Sequence record: PV808484.1
Source: a phage
DNA: 64,000 bases
Reading direction: 5' to 3' (one strand)
Below the pieces are notes generated by a model. The model did not search any database, had not been told where the DNA came from, and saw only the letters and a program-made list of their open reading frames with translations. Numbering within the stretch: position 1 is the first letter of the stretch; the number at the start of each line of letters is the position of its first letter. The position numbers were made by a program, and so were the translations under genes. Shown here one piece after another: positions 4,791-15,728 of the stretch.

Positions 4791-5738
4791 TTAGAAACAG
4801 TGCAGGAAGTTTCGACCATACTGCAAACCAATAGGAGCAAATGGGATATCATCATCGAAATCTTGAACAACAGGTTCTGGTTCCTTCGGTGCTGGCTCTT
4901 TCTTCTCTACTTTTTTAGTTTCTTTCTTAACTTCTTGTACTGGGGTAGACATTCCACGGATAGCAGCAGCTACTTTATCAGACAAAGCAAGAACTTCACG
5001 AGCAGCTTCAATAATCTCTTCTGCCGTTACAGTTTTACCTGTATGATCACGACAAGCGTTAAGAATTGCGTGTCCAACTGAAGCACCAAGATCATAGTCA
5101 GTCACATCAACGCCACGATCTTTAGCAATTTCTGCTTTCAGAGTAACAGTTGCAGATTGTACCACACCAGCCAAGTCGAAAGCATCACCTTTCACACCAG
5201 CACGTAGAAGCTCCAGAGCGCCATTTACAGCGTGTCCTGTTTCAATCCCTACGGTATCACGTTTTTTGTAGTTAGGCTTGCTACCTTCGTTATTAGATGG
5301 CTTATTTCCACCTTTTGAAGAAGATTGTGCTTGCTGAACACCTTCTGTTGAAAGAACAGTGATTTTACCTTTAGAGGAGTTGTAGTATGTTTTGCCATTC
5401 CATTCGGAAGGTTTAACATCCATAGTTACTTCTACACCTTTTTCGATAGTAATCCACTTATCACCATCTTTAACTTGCAGGTTTTCATGTTCTGGGTGCA
5501 GTTTAACTTCACCTAGGCTAACCCAAACACCTTTATCATCAGCACCAGCACCTTTCTCTTTAATAAGCAGAGATGCTTTGTGAGTTGATTCAATTTTCTT
5601 ATCTGGCTGACCTGCAACCTTAATATAAGAGACTTTCATTTCATCAAACTTATCTAGTTTGACATATTCAACGATACCTTCAGCCCAGAATGCTTCTTTT
5701 TTAGTACGACGGTCGATTTCAGAATTAATTACTGGCAT
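4791..5738 (-). CDS. putative single-stranded DNA-binding protein (SSB-like acidic motif)
   Basis: 315 aa; Gly/Ser-rich linker; DFDDDIPF near C-terminus but followed by 15 extra residues. Confidence 0.45.
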   Translation of the reverse strand: MPVINSEIDRRTKKEAFWAEGIVEYVKLDKFDEMKVSYIKVAGQPDKKIESTHKASLLIKEKGAGADDKGVWVSLGEVKLHPEHENLQVKDGDKWITIEKGVEVTMDVKPSEWNGKTYYNSSKGKITVLSTEGVQQAQSSSKGGNKPSNNEGSKPNYKKRDTVGIETGHAVNGALELLRAGVKGDAFDLAGVVQSATVTLKAEIAKDRGVDVTDYDLGASVGHAILNACRDHTGKTVTAEEIIEAAREVLALSDKVAAAIRGMSTPVQEVKKETKKVEKKEPAPKEPEPVVQDFDDDIPFAPIGLQYGRNFLHCF

Positions 5739-5754
5739 AAATTCTCCTCTATAA

Positions 5755-6153
5755 TTACATTACTTTAACACAAAACTCTCGTAAAAGAGTAGCGTCAGTT
5801 TCTTCCAACAGGTATTTACCAAGACCAATACCAAATCCTATTTCACCACTTTCAAAATGGAGGATTTGTATCTTTTCTCCACCAAGGTTAATTACTTTTG
5901 CTTTTCCAGGATTATCCAAAACATCTCGTATTGTATCCTGTAGTAACATAAGTTCACGTTTTGTGATAGTGGTTTCAGATATCTCTTTGTTTTCTACTCT
6001 CACTGTTAAACGGTTGTATCCACCAAAGAGACATAGTATTTGAATAAAAAAGGTATTATCTTGAGGTTCAACATCTTTTTTAGTTAGCTCAAGACGATTA
6101 GTTTCTCTACTGTAGAACGTCTCGACTAAGATTTTAGAACGATTATCTGTCAT
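5755..6153 (-). CDS. hypothetical protein
   Basis: 132-aa ORF in co-directional block. Confidence 0.5.
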   Translation of the reverse strand: MTDNRSKILVETFYSRETNRLELTKKDVEPQDNTFFIQILCLFGGYNRLTVRVENKEISETTITKRELMLLQDTIRDVLDNPGKAKVINLGGEKIQILHFESGEIGFGIGLGKYLLEETDATLLREFCVKVM

Positions 6154-6196
6154 TCAAGTCCTCATAATAACACACAATTATAATGTTTGTCAACAC

Positions 6197-6811
6197 TTAA
6201 ATTTTAAATTCTTCACTGTTAAATGAATCCAGTGTACGTACTTCTGGTTCTTTGGGAATGAAAACGTCTTTTACAAAGCGGAACATGGGGAAACGTTCTG
6301 CCATTTTACGGACGTGTGCTTCTTTACCTGTGTATCGGTGATTAATAGTACAAATATTAGTTTTCAGTGCAAATTCAAAATCTGGATGATATACATAATT
6401 TTGACCATCCCAGTAACACAAGCAAATAGCTACATCAAAGTTCCATACGATTTCACTGCGTACACCTTCTTCCATGATCATAAAGTTAAACTTAAGATCT
6501 TTATAGTATGCTTCAAATACCCATTTCAAATGTGGTAGTTCGGCATAAGTGTGTTCTGTTTGCTTAGTAAGTTGTTTAACATTACGTGCACCAACACCCA
6601 ACATCAAAAATTTCTCTACTAATACGAGTGTATTGTGGTTAGGCATACGCAAGTAAATGTCAATATCTTGTGCAGGTTTCTCTAATCGCCAATCACGTAC
6701 AGCGCCGCCAGCGACAATTGCAAACGGATCTACCAGTTGGCACATACGTAATACTTCTAAAGCTCGTACTTTTTGATCTTCAATATTCATATTTTCTCCT
6801 ATCGTTTCCAC
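6197..6811 (-). CDS. minimal nucleotidyltransferase (Pol-beta superfamily, CCA-adding/poly(A) polymerase head-like)
   Basis: 204 aa; GGAVRD...DID motif (VAGGAVRDWRLEKPAQDIDIYL). Confidence 0.55.
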   Translation of the reverse strand: METIGENMNIEDQKVRALEVLRMCQLVDPFAIVAGGAVRDWRLEKPAQDIDIYLRMPNHNTLVLVEKFLMLGVGARNVKQLTKQTEHTYAELPHLKWVFEAYYKDLKFNFMIMEEGVRSEIVWNFDVAICLCYWDGQNYVYHPDFEFALKTNICTINHRYTGKEAHVRKMAERFPMFRFVKDVFIPKEPEVRTLDSFNSEEFKI

Positions 6812-7395
6812 TCTTTGTGTTGTTCTACATGCTCAAGCATTTCATTATATAGTGCTTTAAGATGTGGAACAACTCTTTCATCTTCAGTTTCAAAGAATTT
6901 TGTAAGCTGTTCTGCCTTAGCTTTCAACCAGCAAAGATGCGCTTCAATTTCAGTATTAAAACGTCCCAGCGTTATAACACGTCCATCACGTTGAATATGG
7001 GCTTTATACTTTTTACGATCTTTTTCGTAACTACAGCCTACCATAGTTCCATGAGATCTTTTACTTACTCTATAAGCTAAGAACTTGTTAAGATCTCCTG
7101 TTACTAAAAGACAGGTATCGGGAGAGTAAACCCTCCCTCCTATAATATCTTTATCAAGTTCTAAGTTTTCCCAGTTATCCCAAGTTTGTAACCAGGAGTA
7201 GAAATTGGAGAACAACTTCCATTCTTCGCAAACCGTCACCCCATTATAACAAGGATCACGTTCTTGTTGACAAGGGGAGTAACACCTCCCCAACATAGCC
7301 ATCCATTTCATATAATGAGGTGTTAGTTTCCTACTGCCAGGTAGTGTACTCTCACCTTCCAAATCATTAATACCTTCACCATATACTGTAAACAT
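6799..7395 (-). CDS. AP2-domain putative homing endonuclease
   Basis: 198 aa; AAGGAG upstream; AP2-like segment VGCSYEKDRKKYKAHIQRDGRVITLGRFNTEIEAHLCW. Confidence 0.5.
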   Translation of the reverse strand: MFTVYGEGINDLEGESTLPGSRKLTPHYMKWMAMLGRCYSPCQQERDPCYNGVTVCEEWKLFSNFYSWLQTWDNWENLELDKDIIGGRVYSPDTCLLVTGDLNKFLAYRVSKRSHGTMVGCSYEKDRKKYKAHIQRDGRVITLGRFNTEIEAHLCWLKAKAEQLTKFFETEDERVVPHLKALYNEMLEHVEQHKEWKR

Positions 7396-7422
7396 AAAAA
7401 CTCCTTTAAAATCAAAGAGTTG

Positions 7423-10002
7423 TCAATGACAACTAGCCCATGAGTTACCAACATCGTAACCAGCAGTGAGAGGTACATTAAGATTGTAATACTCACCAGC
7501 TTTATTAACAGCGATAGATGCTAATTCTCCAGCACGACTGTAGGCTGTAAACCAACCACCTTTTGGAGACTCATGTACGTTAGCCCAAATCTTGCCAGTA
7601 CGTTTCTCTTCCTCTTCTTTCCAGGCATTAACTTTATCCAAACATTCTTTATCAATTTTCTTTTGTTCATCTGGATCATCAACTTGAGTCCAACCTAAAG
7701 ATTCTTTAGAGAACCATTTAAAATGCACCAAATCACGAGTTACTTCAAGCTGTGCTTCATCGTGATATGCAATCATTTGTTGAACGAATGACTTATTTTT
7801 CCAGTCATCAACAAAAAAGTCAACAGCTAATCCTTCTTCTTCGATAAGATCGTCGTAGATAACCATTGCTCTTTTTGCACAAATAACACCACCACTCTGG
7901 AACAGAGAGTTAAGAATTGCGTGTGCAGATCGTGTAGGTACTTTTCTACCATCAATACCGAGAATGTATTTCTTACCTGTTTTAACCCAAAAATCATGCA
8001 GACGTTCTTTAAGAAGCGCAAGAGGTTTTGCAGCTTCCCAGAAAGCATCGTATACAAGCTGTCCTGTATACATATCACTACCTATAGTTTTTGCTACTTT
8101 TGCAGCTTGAGCACCATAAGTAATACCATACTTAACAGATTTAGCAGGGCTTCGTTCAAACTTACGACCAATAGTGTCAGAAATACGTCGAGCCATCATT
8201 GTATGAACATCATTGGGTTTTTCCAATAATAGAGCATTACAATATTCGTGTGGTTCCTGCTCGTACCGCCAACAGTAGTGTGATTCTATTTTTGCCTCAA
8301 GAGAATCAAAGTCATAACCAATTTGGAAGTATTTTGGAACTTCTACACCAAATAAGTTACGCATTTCATATCCGTATAGAGATGTTACACGTGGAATATT
8401 TGCTACTAACCTATGTTTCATACGAGATGTAGCTGCATCACACGTTGCAGCAGGAGTTGGTATACGACCATCAGCCCTTACTGCTGCCAGATAACCTTTA
8501 TCGTAATCCTCTTCATCTTCTTCCCAATCAGCACCACCCCCTAGAATAGAGTTCCTACGGTGTTTATACGTAAGATACTGCACAATCTGCGTAGCATAAG
8601 GAAACTTTTCACCTAGTGCTTCCAAGTTAGGACAAATATCTTTCTCTTGCCCTTTTGTAAAGGAAGGGTTAGTAAGCACTTTAACACCACGACCTTTAGC
8701 TTTAGCAATACGATCTCTTAGTTTCCATTCCAAAGTTTCTGGTGTGCACTCCAGATGATCACATCTGTCCTGGCAGAAGTTAGATGCTAACGTTTGATCA
8801 ACATAGTCACGAATAGCTTTCTCCATCTGTGCTTCATCTTTCTTAATCTTAGTGCCAGATTTAAGAGTGATATCTTTATCTTTATATTCAGATGGACTCC
8901 AACCTAAACCAACTAACCAGTTTTTAATATGTGTAGTGTCGTCTAAAGTAGCAGGTACTGTAGGATCACAAATAGGTTCTTCTGCTGGAATAGGGAGTTT
9001 AAACTCTTTACCTAATGCAAATAACCACCAACCATCTTCTTTTTGTACAAGTTCACCAGAATGTTTCTCTGCAAACTTTATCATGTTACTTGAAGGTTCA
9101 CCATTCTTTTTAAACTGTAGTTTAGGTGGAATGAATGATTTCAAATAACCTTTAGTAGCAGGTTTAGGAGGTAGCACAGGTTCTGCCTCTAAACGACATG
9201 CTTCCATTCGAGCATCCAGATCACGAATATTATCTTCTGCTTGCTTCATGTTGAAAGCAAAGCCACGGTGCTCTTGACGTGTAATAATATCAGCTACACG
9301 TTGTTCTAAATTAAATGGTTCAGACCACTTATTATAATCACCCCACTCTTCCATTAAATAACGGAACACTGCGGTGTTAGCTTTGTTATCGTAAATACAG
9401 TAATACAGCATATCTGCTGCAAATGTTCTAAACCTTTCGGATTCAGGAATGTTTTTTCTGAAATCAATTTTAACATCCCCTCCAGCTTTCTTAGATAACT
9501 CTGCCAGACTATGACCACCGAAGCGATCAGGGTTTAGTGTCTTACTTAAGATCATAGTATCACAAATTTCAATGTTACTATTACCCCAAGTATTGTACTT
9601 AACACTGTAGTTGAGTTTAAAAAATAATTTAATTGCCAGTAAGTCGAAGTTAATGATGTTGTGTCCAACTACTTTGGTAATTTTATAGTTTGAATTACCT
9701 TTAAATTTACCTGTTCCATTTACAAAATCAGGAAAATCTTTAAGAGGGAAATGGGTATATTCTAAATGCTCATATTCCTCCAGTCGGTATTCATACTTTC
9801 CGTCAGTCTCAACATACGGACGACCATCGAAAAGATATTTATCACCATCATGGAAAGCAATAATCTCTCCAGTATCATGACTTTCGCACACAATACAGTG
9901 CATTGCAAAACTATCTTTTAAACGATATGGACTTGCCAAGTAATCTACACTTTCGTCATTAAGCAAGTTGTTACTTTCAATGTCGAAAGTAAAAGCTCCC
10001 AT
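7423..10002 (-). CDS. DNA polymerase, family A, with 3'-5' exonuclease domain
   Basis: 859 aa; N-terminal exo motif (FTFDIESNNL); Pol A motif B-like KSVKYGITYGAQAAK; strong RBS AAGGAGGG. Confidence 0.85.
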   Translation of the reverse strand: MGAFTFDIESNNLLNDESVDYLASPYRLKDSFAMHCIVCESHDTGEIIAFHDGDKYLFDGRPYVETDGKYEYRLEEYEHLEYTHFPLKDFPDFVNGTGKFKGNSNYKITKVVGHNIINFDLLAIKLFFKLNYSVKYNTWGNSNIEICDTMILSKTLNPDRFGGHSLAELSKKAGGDVKIDFRKNIPESERFRTFAADMLYYCIYDNKANTAVFRYLMEEWGDYNKWSEPFNLEQRVADIITRQEHRGFAFNMKQAEDNIRDLDARMEACRLEAEPVLPPKPATKGYLKSFIPPKLQFKKNGEPSSNMIKFAEKHSGELVQKEDGWWLFALGKEFKLPIPAEEPICDPTVPATLDDTTHIKNWLVGLGWSPSEYKDKDITLKSGTKIKKDEAQMEKAIRDYVDQTLASNFCQDRCDHLECTPETLEWKLRDRIAKAKGRGVKVLTNPSFTKGQEKDICPNLEALGEKFPYATQIVQYLTYKHRRNSILGGGADWEEDEEDYDKGYLAAVRADGRIPTPAATCDAATSRMKHRLVANIPRVTSLYGYEMRNLFGVEVPKYFQIGYDFDSLEAKIESHYCWRYEQEPHEYCNALLLEKPNDVHTMMARRISDTIGRKFERSPAKSVKYGITYGAQAAKVAKTIGSDMYTGQLVYDAFWEAAKPLALLKERLHDFWVKTGKKYILGIDGRKVPTRSAHAILNSLFQSGGVICAKRAMVIYDDLIEEEGLAVDFFVDDWKNKSFVQQMIAYHDEAQLEVTRDLVHFKWFSKESLGWTQVDDPDEQKKIDKECLDKVNAWKEEEEKRTGKIWANVHESPKGGWFTAYSRAGELASIAVNKAGEYYNLNVPLTAGYDVGNSWASCH

Positions 10003-12282: not shown

Positions 12283-12552
12283 CTAAAATGATTCGTTTGT
12301 CTCCATAATATATTGCATTTCCAAATCTTCCATATGTTTCTTAAATTGGTAAACAATTTCCGATGGGGAAATATCTATATCAAAAATTTCTTTTGTACCA
12401 GAATAAAATCTAATACCATCAACAATAAGACCACCATAATAATCCCAATCACTTTCTCGTGAGAAAGGATTAGGTTCTTCATAATAGTAATCTACTTCAA
12501 CAATAATAGGTTCTTTATTATCTTGTTTATACTCAAAATCAAAAGTGTTCAT
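12283..12552 (-). CDS. hypothetical protein
   Basis: 89-aa ORF. Confidence 0.45.
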   Translation of the reverse strand: MNTFDFEYKQDNKEPIIVEVDYYYEEPNPFSRESDWDYYGGLIVDGIRFYSGTKEIFDIDISPSEIVYQFKKHMEDLEMQYIMETNESF

Positions 12553-13496
12553 TATAAATCCTCGATAAGCAGTCTGCGGGTTTCATTTAAATCATCAATA
12601 TTGTAGTTATCTCTTACATACTTAGCAAGAGCCAATCCTTTCTCAATACAAACATCAGGAGATTCGATTAAGTATTCTACAATATCTTTCCACTCTTTAA
12701 CTGAATCAGCAAAGAAGATTAGATCTTTAAATTCTTCAGTATAATAGTTCTCTCGTGGTGAACAGACGAGTGGCAAACCTTTAGCACCAGCTTCAAGAAT
12801 TTTTAAATTACTTTTAGCATTATTAAAATGATTATTTACTAATGGAGCTATGGAGATTTGATGACCATCGTATGCTTCCATATAACACTCATAAGGACGA
12901 ATACCTTCATAAACACAATCTGGTTGAATATCTTCTTTAATTTGCAACCATTGAGCACTACTTAACTCTTCGTGATCTCTACGAAATCCACATAAAGTTA
13001 AATCTTTACCAAAATCAGGAAGAATTGCTAAATCATGTTTATGGGTTTCACTTCCCGCCCAAACCAGTGGACTTTTAGAATAACGGTCTTTCGTAACAAC
13101 AAACTGTCCTTCATCAAAAGGTAGTCCGTTAGGCACAATATGTACATTATCATTGTATTGGCTTAATTCAACCTTTAATGCCGGAGTTGTTGTAGTTACA
13201 AGATCGCTTCTTTCAAGGAACCATTTTAGGTCATCTCGGATTTGATTTTCAAATAGTCCTTCAAGCATATGCCCTTCAGGAATAATTAAAGAATCATCCA
13301 GATCCATTACCAATTTAAACCCAAGTTGTTTAAGAGCCAGGAAACCTGGCTTTCCACGTGTTGGTACTCCATTGAACACAAAAATATTATGCTTAGGATT
13401 AATGGTCAGTTTGCGTTTATATGGCAAAATGATCCTATGAAAATCACATACACTATACTTTTCATTTCCGCGTGTGTCAAGAATAATATTAGGCAT
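12552..13496 (-). CDS. putative glycosyltransferase (GT-B, GT1/GT4-like), paralogue 1
   Basis: 314 aa; C-terminal KSNLKILEAGAKGLP resembles GT4 sugar-donor motif; paralogous to 13508..14482. Confidence 0.55.
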   Translation of the reverse strand: MPNIILDTRGNEKYSVCDFHRIILPYKRKLTINPKHNIFVFNGVPTRGKPGFLALKQLGFKLVMDLDDSLIIPEGHMLEGLFENQIRDDLKWFLERSDLVTTTTPALKVELSQYNDNVHIVPNGLPFDEGQFVVTKDRYSKSPLVWAGSETHKHDLAILPDFGKDLTLCGFRRDHEELSSAQWLQIKEDIQPDCVYEGIRPYECYMEAYDGHQISIAPLVNNHFNNAKSNLKILEAGAKGLPLVCSPRENYYTEEFKDLIFFADSVKEWKDIVEYLIESPDVCIEKGLALAKYVRDNYNIDDLNETRRLLIEDL

Positions 13497-13507
13497 ATAA
13501 CTCCTTG

Positions 13508-14482
13508 TTAAAGACTTTCAATAACTTGACGACGCAGTTCATTGGCATCTGCAAGATTATAATTAAGACGAACGTGTTCTGCAAGCATCATACCACGATC
13601 TTCTGTGTATCTAGGGTTCCTCATTAGCTTGACAACTTCATAATGCCAAGATGCTTTAGAATCTGCATAGATAACAGCCTTTGCATCTACCGGATTGAAG
13701 TACGGCAGCACAGGAGAACAGATAATAGGAAGACCCTTTGCACCTGCTTCCAAAATCTTCAAATTGCTTTTACAGTTGTTGAAGTCATTATCTACCAGGG
13801 GAGCAATTGCAATGCTATGACCGTCATACACAGACATATACTCACCTAAATTTTTAATAGCTGGTTTATACTGTGCATTTGGAATTTTACGTTTTATTTT
13901 AACCCACTCCGCAGTAGTTAGATACTGACTGTTATTTCCAACAGGTGCAGAAGGATACACTTCATACCCTGCAATTGTCAATAGTGTATCATCAAATGTA
14001 TTAGCTACAAGAGATAAATCAGGCTCGTGGCTTGCTCCTCCAGCCCAGATAATAGGCGTGTCAGAATTACGGTCTTTTGTCAAAGTAAATTGACCTTCGT
14101 CGTAAGGTAGTGCGTTTCTAATAACGACAACATTACGATTTAAATGACGAATTTTGTAAGCTAGGTATTCTGTTGTTACTGTAACAACATCTGCTAACTT
14201 AACCATCTCTACAATAGTCTTTGAATGATTAGTAAATACGCCAGCCATATAATGTTCAGGATTAAGTGAATAAAAGTCATCTAAATCAACAATAATCTTA
14301 ACACCTTGTGCCTTCAGGCGTTTAACTTCGTCTGCTCCATGAGAATACACTCTATTAAAAACTAAAACGTCTTTCTTAGGTTTAAACGTATTTCCAGCAA
14401 ATGGCATTACAATACGATGGTAATCACAACCACTGCCTAACTTATTATCACACTTAAGTACAGGAGTATTAGGATTTACCAT
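13508..14482 (-). CDS. putative glycosyltransferase (GT-B), paralogue 2
   Basis: same motifs as paralogue 1; start moved to ATG 14482 (GAGGAGG upstream, N-terminus then aligns with paralogue 1). Confidence 0.55.
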   Translation of the reverse strand: MVNPNTPVLKCDNKLGSGCDYHRIVMPFAGNTFKPKKDVLVFNRVYSHGADEVKRLKAQGVKIIVDLDDFYSLNPEHYMAGVFTNHSKTIVEMVKLADVVTVTTEYLAYKIRHLNRNVVVIRNALPYDEGQFTLTKDRNSDTPIIWAGGASHEPDLSLVANTFDDTLLTIAGYEVYPSAPVGNNSQYLTTAEWVKIKRKIPNAQYKPAIKNLGEYMSVYDGHSIAIAPLVDNDFNNCKSNLKILEAGAKGLPIICSPVLPYFNPVDAKAVIYADSKASWHYEVVKLMRNPRYTEDRGMMLAEHVRLNYNLADANELRRQVIESL

Positions 14483-15155
14483 ATTTTTGAGCCTCCTCAT
14501 AAGAGATAAAAGTTTTACCATTGCGAAGATCCTCCAGTGATTGTTTATATTGTTCCCAGTTTACACCAATCCCCTGTTCTTTCTCTTCTTTTGATAGATT
14601 CGCAAAAGGTAAAGGATTGTCTCCAAACACATCGTCAGGATGGATAAACGCCATAATTCGAATAGGACATGGTACGCCTGGAATACCTCGGTTCAAACCT
14701 GCCAGCGGAACGCGCTGAATCCACTCTGCATCTTCATATCCATAACCGTGGGTGTATGAGCGGAAATAGCCAGCTTTCTCAATAACTGCACGGGAATACA
14801 TACCAAACTGGCACATCCCTAGTTCCCAAATAACCACTTCCCCTTCAATACCTTTTACTTTATCTTTAAAGTATTCAGGCATACCAAAGAAATCCCAACC
14901 ATTTTCCTTCGCCTGTTTTACAAAATATGTTTCCCAACCTTGAACAACAGGATAACAATCATCATCAAAAATAAACCAGTAGTCATACCCTTCGTCATAA
15001 AACTTTTTCATCAATTCATTACGAGCATATGCAACACCTTTTCGTTCCCGATCATACTGTACAACAAAAGTAGCATTAGGATCAGTCACAAGATAATCTT
15101 TAAGAGGACGCTTACCTACAGTAATAACACCAACACCAATTTTTGTATTTTCCAA
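14469..15155 (-). CDS. putative glycosyltransferase (GT-A, family 2-like)
   Basis: 228 aa; GVGVITVGKRP; DxD-type FIFDDDCYP. Confidence 0.55.
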   Translation of the reverse strand: MENTKIGVGVITVGKRPLKDYLVTDPNATFVVQYDRERKGVAYARNELMKKFYDEGYDYWFIFDDDCYPVVQGWETYFVKQAKENGWDFFGMPEYFKDKVKGIEGEVVIWELGMCQFGMYSRAVIEKAGYFRSYTHGYGYEDAEWIQRVPLAGLNRGIPGVPCPIRIMAFIHPDDVFGDNPLPFANLSKEEKEQGIGVNWEQYKQSLEDLRNGKTFISYEEAQKYGKS

Positions 15156-15164
15156 AATAACTCC

Positions 15165-15728
15165 TTAAATAATTTTATTCATGTCTTGACAATGTAAAAG
15201 GTGTGAAACAGCTTTTCTAGGATCATCATTACCTAAACGGTAGGTGTGAAATAAATATAACCCACGTAGTAAACCTAGCCTTTTATTATTAGCATGTAAT
15301 GCTTTAGAGAAAATTATATCAAACTGTATTGATCTTTCCTCAAAAGGGATTTCATTCCACAGACTCTTACGAAAGAGAAGAAAGAATCCTGCTAAGATAG
15401 CATCTGTAGGTACTTCCTCTATTGAGTTTCCCCATTCTAGATGTGCTCTTTTTGCAATCTCAATGTGGTGTAATATATTTGGATCTTCACTTCTTTCATT
15501 ATTAAATAATTGATATGTTGATCCCAATCTATTACAAGATGCACCAAGAACATCAAAATCAGGATTTGAACGGACTATTGATTCCAGCCAAGCAGGTTGT
15601 TCTGGAAGAAGAAACATTGTATCAATGTCTCTTAGGCAAATCCAACTATCTTCTGGTAAGACACTTATTGTGTCATTGATACCTTTTCCAATATCTCCAG
15701 AAAGATAGGGAGTTATGTGAAATATCAT
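15165..15728 (-). CDS. hypothetical protein (possibly glycosyltransferase-associated)
   Basis: 187-aa ORF, co-directional with the glycosyltransferase cluster. Confidence 0.45.
   Translation of the reverse strand: MIFHITPYLSGDIGKGINDTISVLPEDSWICLRDIDTMFLLPEQPAWLESIVRSNPDFDVLGASCNRLGSTYQLFNNERSEDPNILHHIEIAKRAHLEWGNSIEEVPTDAILAGFFLLFRKSLWNEIPFEERSIQFDIIFSKALHANNKRLGLLRGLYLFHTYRLGNDDPRKAVSHLLHCQDMNKII

Follow-up and report, generated by a model that had tools for sequence, protein, structure and literature searches.

[quoted passage not shown] The frame is present as the initial annotation described it, with 204 codons, and lies on the minus strand of the window (the whole analysed stretch of 64,000 nucleotides), a strand that the annotation had left unstated. 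Judged from the local sequence, translation is more likely to begin with the ATG at 6790 than with the GTG at 6811, because AGGAG lies 5 nt upstream of the ATG and gp038 of the RefSeq phage alia, a 197-aa protein labelled 'nucleotidyltransferase', begins there. The longer start form is annotated in some GenBank records, as seen in tblastn matches spanning residues 1-204 versus 4-204. Residue numbers below are those of the 197-aa form, which compares with 412 aa for Escherichia coli Cca, so that the earlier description of the protein as half the size of a full CCA enzyme is accurate. The features of the gene are collected in Table 1.

Table 1. Features of the nucleotidyltransferase gene and its start region, in window coordinates
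Feature	Position	Strand	Basis
Nucleotidyltransferase CDS, 197 aa	6197..6790	-	ORF list, RefSeq alia start, PHROG 1614, AF2 pLDDT 91.3
Stop codon of nucleotidyltransferase	6199-6197	-	Within CDS 6197..6790
Seven more codons if GTG at 6811 is the start; probably untranslated leader	6791..6811	-	Direct sequence reading
AGGAG ribosome-binding site	6800-6796	-	5 nt upstream of ATG at 6790
TAG stop of upstream HNH gene	6801-6799	-	Overlapped by AGGAG of nucleotidyltransferase
GGAVRD, residues 28-33: hG[GS]/triphosphate-binding part of motif A	6692..6709	-	Sequence, alignment
D42-I-D44: two metal-binding aspartates, strand beta2	6659..6667	-	Sequence, alignment
E93: candidate third catalytic carboxylate, predicted strand 88-96	6512..6514	-	Alignment, DSSP of model

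Over the 1.8 kb around the gene (window positions 5700-7500), identity is 99.7% to Escherichia phage EmilieFrey and 96-98% to further Justusliebigvirus genomes, which are phi92-like members of the Stephanstirmvirinae; the window itself comes from a coliphage of this genus. RefSeq records label the gene 'nucleotidyltransferase', while the homologue in phAPEC8, ~37% identical, is labelled 'putative tRNA nucleotidyl transferase / poly(A) polymerase', a label that is also found on other records. The protein matches PHROG 1614 ('nucleotidyltransferase') with an E-value of 1e-34. By tblastn, 196 phage records are matched at identities down to ~30%, and the hosts of these homologues include Escherichia, Vibrio (including the host of ICP1), Klebsiella, Aeromonas and others. 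A word-indexed homologue search returned two proteins only, and an alignment query was needed to find more. With a profile, a search of 1.84 billion proteins (representatives of clusters at 50% identity) gave 2889 relatives at E<=1e-3, of which 249 reach E<=1e-30; among the best 150 of the 2889, almost all are 175-230 aa long. Scanning the N-terminally extended family members (262-400 aa) for fused domains revealed none. On this sequence conservation, the frame is a genuine conserved gene rather than an ORF that arose by chance. The gene as such is no discovery, because it is already annotated as a nucleotidyltransferase and falls in named families, PHROG 1614 and PF26128; the family is thus already known, and it is the role of its members that is at issue.

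Both parts of the GGAVRD...DID signature reported by the initial annotation can be read directly in the minus-strand translation. The GGAVRD stretch aligns with GGAVRD of E. coli Cca and of the Planococcus CCA enzyme, and D42 and D44 align with D21 and D23 of E. coli Cca, as well as with D45 and D47 of the anti-defence protein Gad2, discussed below. In a family alignment of 78 sequences, 23-55% identical to the window protein, the hG[GS] element followed by [DE]h[DE]h takes the invariant forms A27-G28-G29 and D42-I-D44-I. Residue by residue, D21, A27, G28, G29, W34, D42 and D44 are invariant; R32 is kept in 77 of the 78 sequences (99%) and D33 in 69, and conservation reaches at least 90% at R32, Y46, Y82, M104, M106, W126 and K162. 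At position 93, an acidic residue is present in 72/78 sequences (92%), 67 of them with Glu and five with Asp. In the structural model this residue sits on a neighbouring beta strand, as a third carboxylate should, and E93 is accordingly named here as a candidate for that role, its placement following strand order and not coordinates.

Selection on the active site is indicated by the unchanged G28, G29, D42 and D44 and the 92% acidic occupancy of position 93 across sequences only 23-55% identical to the window protein, which is very probably an active enzyme. The same pattern weighs heavily against a catalytically dead remnant with a structural or regulatory function. The homologue in ICP1, which is truncated or split to 139 aa, speaks for such a remnant, but this explanation borders on the negligible.

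An AlphaFold2 model built from the family alignment has a mean pLDDT of 91.3 and a pTM of 0.84, and shows the alpha-beta-alpha-beta core of the superfamily. When the model was compared with the PDB using Foldseek, the first 44 matches were all class-II CCA-adding, A-adding, CC-adding or PAP enzymes. The comparison with CCA-adding head domains, MNT toxins and cGAS/DncV-like enzymes that had been suggested as a check thus places the CCA/PAP group closest, with MenT1 (6.6), CdnE (6.2 and 5.8) and OAS1 (6.1) weaker at about 6, and the aminoglycoside and lincosamide nucleotidyltransferases also among the weaker matches (5.5-7.3). Because the top matches are uniformly of the class-II CCA/PAP type and the others are weaker, the identification as a nucleotidyltransferase stands. 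The proposal of a minimal Pol-beta superfamily enzyme is supported, neither an unrelated fold nor a missing triad having been found, and the assignment of fold and family is close to certain. Searches of solved structures by sequence matched motif A only (E 0.2-1), apart from spurious hits to a designed protein and haemoglobin, and were uninformative by themselves. Many phages, and giant viruses as well, encode small proteins whose predicted structures are similar.

The ranking of structural matches also bears on the possibility that the enzyme inactivates a host factor by nucleotidylylation, either of a protein, as MntA does when it AMPylates HepT, or of a small non-nucleotide molecule, as the aminoglycoside and lincosamide nucleotidyltransferases do. 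Enzymes of these kinds do appear among the matches, but clearly below the CCA/PAP group. There is also no conserved adjacent partner gene: the downstream 132-aa ORF, shared only with phAPEC8 and one metagenomic contig, is confined to a Stephanstirmvirinae-like lineage. Transfer to a protein or a small non-nucleotide molecule is thus highly improbable.

Structural proximity to class-II enzymes makes a tRNA-directed function a candidate: as a minimal tRNA nucleotidyltransferase, the protein could add or restore the 3'-CCA of tRNAs from the host or the phage, for instance where a defence nuclease or toxin has damaged them. In favour of this, class-II CCA-adding and A-adding enzymes are the nearest solved structures, and the annotation carried by phAPEC8 and other records points the same way. 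Motif A, with the form GGxVRD...DxD, is present, since GGAVRDWRLEKPAQDID aligns with motif A of Cca and of the CCA enzyme. Beyond this, similarity to class-II CCA/PAP enzymes is limited to ~25-55 residues around motif A and remains under the family cutoffs. The Pfam model PolyA_pol (PF01743) scores 19 bits against a cutoff of 23 bits and covers residues 26-81 only; just seven of the 78 family members match it at E<=0.01. With the NCBIfam CCA equivalogs, whose cutoffs are 281-290 bits, the score is 14-15 bits, and an hhalign comparison with the single E. coli Cca sequence gives a probability of 5% over 24 columns.

The neck, body and tail domains, by which class-II enzymes grip the tRNA or RNA and reach a total of ~350-480 aa, are absent from the 197-aa protein, as is an HD domain; a short C-terminal subdomain is the last part of the model, whereas its structural targets have 344-517 aa. 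In class-II enzymes, motif B (RRD) reads the ribose and motif D (EDxxR) selects the base. In a manual alignment to E. coli Cca, NFDVAICLCYWDG stands in place of RRDLTINALAQDD, and KEAHVRKMAERF stands in place of EDPLRVLRVARF. Aligned by eye, the family lacks the Arg pair of motif B, which would precede F118, and has 'xxF[GPD]' instead, and at motif D the Asp and Arg are not conserved, K-E-x-[HY]-V-x-K being found in their place. The absence of motifs B and D is moderately secure, because it was read from an alignment by eye and not from a structure-based one.

The tRNA gene content of the phages themselves is relevant as well. In the sister phage alia, 15 tRNA genes occur together with an RNA ligase/phosphoesterase pair, a setting in which tRNA repair is conceivable, and one family member lies ~4 kb from a T4 Rnl1-like RNA ligase and a kinase/HD gene. 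However, a phage requirement for CCA synthesis on its own tRNAs can be rejected because all 15 alia tRNA genes (15/15) encode CCA. No tRNA or Rfam match was found in the 64-kb window, and no tRNA gene in the Vibrio podophage 1.253.O, which carries a homologue. The host, moreover, possesses its own Cca. The protein is thus probably not a CCA-adding enzyme, and a role in adding or repairing the CCA ends of tRNAs is improbable. There is correspondingly no support for labels such as 'tRNA nucleotidyltransferase / poly(A) polymerase' in the annotation of these genes.

A different relationship emerges from PF26128, a family named 'Gad2'. Gad2 (Gabija anti-defence 2), from Bacillus phage SPbetaL7, is 400 aa long and contains a predicted nucleotidyltransferase domain; it was described by Yirmiya et al. 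(bioRxiv 10.1101/2023.05.01.538930). Its expression is toxic, deletion of gad2 renders SPbetaL7 sensitive to Gabija, and a Gad2 homologue from a Brevibacillus laterosporus prophage abolishes Gabija defence; genetic anti-Gabija evidence is confined to these two proteins (bioRxiv 10.1101/2023.05.01.538930). The Gad2 mechanism had not been elucidated according to a review of February 2026, which lists Gabija in a summary table as reported to act at DNA ends (PMC12904381). The window protein enters this family through a precomputed table, in which PF26128 is assigned to P0001, its cluster representative and 99% identical to it, and to many relatives; P0073 and P0031 are marked 'Gad2' there without a weak or faint flag. 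The assignment rests on that table, the local Pfam copy being one without the PF26128 model, in which true Gad2 itself is unmatched. Gad2 sequences were taken from the preprint supplement; 602 homologues were collected, and PF26128 is present on all 120 listed. One 400-aa member of the window family, P0143, was considered as a Gad2 and rejected.

In a direct hhalign comparison with 46 true Gad2 sequences, the window family reaches a probability of 93.3% (E 2.7e-7); the 114 aligned columns are confined to the catalytic core and set window residues 22-152 against Gad2 25-141, at ~22% identity. Against a single Gad2 sequence the probability is 86.9%, compared with 5% for the single Cca sequence, and the family is therefore closer in sequence to Gad2 than to Cca. 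The relationship is nonetheless a remote one: an HMM of the Gad2 N-domain built here reaches only 21.5 bits, and reciprocal HMM searches give 21-25 bits. In an AF2 model of Gad2 (pLDDT 80.8), the first ~125 residues show the same succession of helices and strands as the window protein. The two also have in common the AGGA...ND.D.Y pattern, a Gln or Asn on strand beta5 (N102 in the window protein, Q in the family consensus, Q88 in Gad2), an F-D-x-x-x-C element (F118/C123 and F105/C110, respectively) and a conserved Phe (F138 and F127), and both are phage-borne.

The differences are equally clear. Gad2 has ~400 aa, whereas the window protein ends at 197 aa, soon after the core, and lacks both the helical region and the beta-rich C-terminal domain of Gad2 (residues 250-400, within a part of ~250 residues). 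Gad2 is without the RDW of GGAxRDW, and it has no acidic residue at the position of E93, D106 and D115 being invariant instead. Because of this exchange of acidic positions, the active sites of Gad2 and the window protein may differ. Gad2 is found in phages and prophages of Firmicutes, whereas the window subfamily belongs to virulent phages of Gram-negative hosts. From these alignments, the window protein is best described as a distant and shorter relative of Gad2, not as an ortholog.

The surroundings of the gene are those of replication. It is co-directional with the DNA polymerase gene and lies inside the replication block; phAPEC8 and an unrelated 54-kb contig both preserve the order primase-helicase, PolA, (HNH), nucleotidyltransferase, 132-aa ORF and SSB-like ORF. 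In unrelated phages, family members follow a DnaB helicase and PrimPol, a UvrD helicase or a 5'-3' exonuclease; in ICP1-like phages the gene is near those for DNA ligase, ClpP and PhoH, and other members adjoin ribonucleotide reductase (RNR) genes. Genes for NT5C and a dGTP diphosphohydrolase are also among the neighbours of some members. Neither the downstream 132-aa ORF nor the other neighbours have a Pfam or PADLOC match. The replication neighbourhood may reflect no more than early or middle timing of expression, and an apparently subfamily-wide presence inside the replication block would be unusual for an anti-defence gene.

Within its phages the gene appears to be retained as faithfully as the polymerase. 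Organism counts by tblastn are equal for the nucleotidyltransferase and the adjacent DNA polymerase (Escherichia 107, Klebsiella 8, Campylobacter 5, Justusliebigvirus 3, Phapecoctavirus 3), and each gene is matched by 56 records at >=95% identity, so that the nucleotidyltransferase appears to be a core gene of the Stephanstirmvirinae. Outside phages it is scarce: a search of 5,426 complete E. coli genomes and 72,556 plasmids gave no match, and only four MAG contigs were picked up when 185,579 species genomes were scanned by pattern, although the consensus used, AGGAPR[DN]W, would not match the GGAVRDW of the window protein. Retention is combined with rapid change. Between Justusliebigvirus and Phapecoctavirus the nucleotidyltransferase is ~37% identical, compared with 56% for the downstream 132-aa protein and ~78% for the polymerase. 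A protein that is kept and yet diverges quickly fits a host-facing function.

The reading preferred here, with a probability of about 0.5, is that the gene encodes an active, stand-alone nucleotidyltransferase of the Gad2 family whose role is in host interaction or counter-defence rather than in the synthesis of tRNA CCA ends. The enzyme would use two-metal catalysis to move a nucleoside monophosphate from an NTP or dNTP onto an acceptor hydroxyl, which is most likely a 3'-OH, either at the end of a polynucleotide or on a nucleotide. A polynucleotide 3' end is a serious candidate for the acceptor, at a little under even odds. Untemplated addition to the 3' end of a nucleic acid, or alternatively a nucleotide product, could then serve counter-defence; these two routes are favoured because the closest enzymes all extend a polynucleotide 3'-OH and because Gad2, the nearest relative in sequence to have been characterised, counters a defence that is reported to act on DNA ends. 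A counter-defence role resembling that of Gad2 is an attractive but tentative analogy, and action specifically against Gabija is unlikely. A literature search for Gabija acting on Stephanstirmvirinae found nothing.

Two other activities would be open to an enzyme with this core. The first is RNA tailing in the manner of a poly(A) polymerase, by which host or defence transcripts, or other RNAs, would be marked for decay during host takeover. Here, small phage nucleotidyltransferases that structurally resemble CCA enzymes are known to be toxic on overexpression (PMC7291057; bioRxiv 10.64898/2026.09.15.751885). These toxic proteins, however, are from Autographiviridae; they are absent from the tblastn matches and may belong to a different subfamily. 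An ORF homologous to the toxic Autographiviridae Gp22 was not found in the KP34 region examined. The window protein has no RNA-binding domain, and its pI is near neutral (6.3, with a family median of 6.6), which does not suggest strong binding to nucleic acids. The gene has no link to RNA decay genes either, and RNA tailing is on the whole a rather improbable function.

The second concerns nucleotide signals, for example a dinucleotide decoy, cyclic or linear, which the enzyme might make or alter in the manner of CD-NTases or of the phage nucleotidyltransferases reported to inhibit TIR-STING. Phage minimal nucleotidyltransferases that make 3'3'-cGAMP and c-di-AMP have been reported by Ho et al. 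(bioRxiv 10.1101/2022.06.09.495361), and the neutral pI and the lack of an obvious polynucleotide-binding module in the window protein would be compatible with a small-molecule acceptor. The family members near RNR, NT5C and dGTP diphosphohydrolase genes also have nucleotide metabolism as their setting. A search for the marks of cGAS/DncV-like enzymes (a CD-NTase fold with a C-terminal helical lobe and a match to a defence model) did not find them in the window protein, and a signalling function is quite improbable.

What is added here to an already named gene is its relationship to Gad2, the case against CCA addition, and a pattern in which a core gene, restricted to virulent phages, evolves fast. 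As a small, confidently modelled protein with a canonical triad, it makes the function of a head-only enzyme of the CCA/PAP type testable. A second testable question is whether counter-defence of the Gad2 type reaches virulent phages of Gram-negative hosts. In a more speculative extension of the preferred reading, the short proteins may be minimal, self-sufficient Gad2 enzymes, encoded by a fast-evolving core gene next to the replication genes of virulent phages, that blind end- or nucleotide-sensing defences such as Gabija by adding untemplated 3' nucleotides to phage DNA or RNA or by means of a nucleotide product. This is a long shot; if it were true, the 197-aa enzyme would give direct biochemical access to the Gad2 mechanism, and interest in the gene would rise sharply if the short form carried Gad2 activity.

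Several other systems of small Pol-beta fold enzymes invite comparison. The MNT-like phage nucleotidyltransferases and the MenT/AbiEii toxins are likewise minimal enzymes of this fold that take part in phage-host conflict, but the adjacent cognate partner and GSx10DxD motif that characterize the MNT/MenT/AbiEii group were not found for the window gene. The cyclic dinucleotide-making enzymes of Ho et al. carry the signature GS-x-AYGT-x4-SDxD (bioRxiv 10.1101/2022.06.09.495361); the window protein was considered as one of these and rejected on its motif, and belongs to a different family. Among bacterial proteins, NP_344798.1 of Streptococcus pneumoniae (PDB 2la3) is a stand-alone 191-aa protein described as a 'CCA-adding enzyme head domain', 10% identical to the window protein. 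A further comparison is with the small genes annotated as 'tRNA nucleotidyltransferase' in Autographiviridae and other phages, including Pectobacterium phages PP2 and DU_PP_II, Dickeya phage Ninurta, Pseudomonas phage phiNV3 and Caulobacter phage Cd1. These often lie beside replication genes (PMC7693777). Their products are too diverged to be detected by tblastn, and several are named in UniProt as PolyA_pol head-domain proteins. Their predicted structures match the window protein in Foldseek with E-values of 1e-7 to 1e-9 and TM-scores of 0.57-0.62 and, at 167-190 aa, they are stand-alone proteins of similar size.

Downstream of the gene for the NTase (the Gad2-family nucleotidyltransferase) lies an ORF of 132 aa. 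The pair is kept together in the Phapecoctavirus relative phAPEC8, where the 132-aa protein is 56% identical, and also in an unrelated contig of 54 kb (31%). The 132-aa ORF was not found as a neighbour of NTase homologues in other phage groups, and has no match in Pfam or PADLOC. A predicted promoter lies within the 43 nt (6154-6196) that separate the NTase stop codon from this ORF, and therefore the 132-aa and SSB-like genes may have a host-dependent promoter of their own, with the total of promoter-like sites in the region not above shuffled expectation. A terminator-like hairpin (4768-4749) follows the two genes.

The 315-aa product of the second gene, named single-stranded DNA-binding protein in one GenBank record, has no match in a Pfam search. 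It contains DFDDDIPF, 18 residues from the C terminus, the same sequence as the C-terminal tip of Escherichia coli SSB. That tip recruits host replication and repair proteins.

Features of the window and of the sister phage alia (gp numbers)
Feature	Location	Strand	Remarks
SSB-like gene, 315-aa protein	4791-5738	-	PHROG 4477
132-aa ORF	5755-6153	-	PHROG 16560
Sigma-70-like promoter, near-consensus	6164-6193	-	TTGACA, 18 nt, TG-TATTAT; 11/12
HNH endonuclease gene	6799-7395	-	PHROG 953, E 9e-74
Glycosyltransferase-run ORF	12552-13496	-	Run: alia gp044-gp047 counterparts, RefSeq "glycosyltransferase"
Glycosyltransferase-run ORF	13508-14521	-	As above
Glycosyltransferase-run ORF	14469-15155	-	As above
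Glycosyltransferase-run ORF	15165-15728	-	As above
Sir2-like protein	alia gp165		
Short "histidyl tRNA synthetase" fragment	alia gp176		
MazG-like nucleotide pyrophosphohydrolase	alia gp214		
RNA ligase + phosphoesterase pair	alia gp221-222		
PRPP synthetase + nicotinamide phosphoribosyltransferase	alia gp231-232		

Directly downstream of the primase/helicase, four genes whose alia counterparts are annotated as glycosyltransferases occur in a row (12552-15728, minus strand), an unusual run within a replication block. Candidate targets of these enzymes are DNA, the virion or a host glycan. A dTDP-rhamnose pathway is also present in alia (gp189-192). In the alia segment L014 (97010-147009), there are 15 tRNA genes, all 15 with an encoded CCA. 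Together with these tRNA genes and the report of the anti-TIR gene Atd1 in Justusliebigvirus (AntiDefenseFinder preprint, PMC11370490), the alia genes listed from gp165 to gp232 constitute a putative, sizeable counter-defence repertoire beyond the window.

The NTase homologue in Vibrio phage ICP1_2006_A (locus L003, 4986-5405) is only 139 aa, comprises the head domain and ends just past the F-G-x-S-V-C motif; a 60-aa ORF (5386-5568) overlaps and follows it. Isolates of ICP1 have the gene in either a split or a truncated form. The same region holds genes for DNA ligase, ClpP, PRPP synthetase and NadV. A 55-kb metagenomic phage contig has two Gad2-family (PF26128) genes (locus L011, 1-233 and 6001-6588), one encoding 300 aa and one 195 aa, which flank genes for ribonucleotide reductase and glutaredoxin.

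Upstream of the NTase, an HNH endonuclease gene is located between it and the DNA polymerase gene, with the HNH stop codon overlapping the ribosome-binding site of the NTase. Several relatives show the polymerase match broken into two parts or carry an intein annotation for it, which makes this stretch look like a hotspot of homing elements. In phAPEC8, by contrast, three small ORFs are present where the window phage has the HNH gene.
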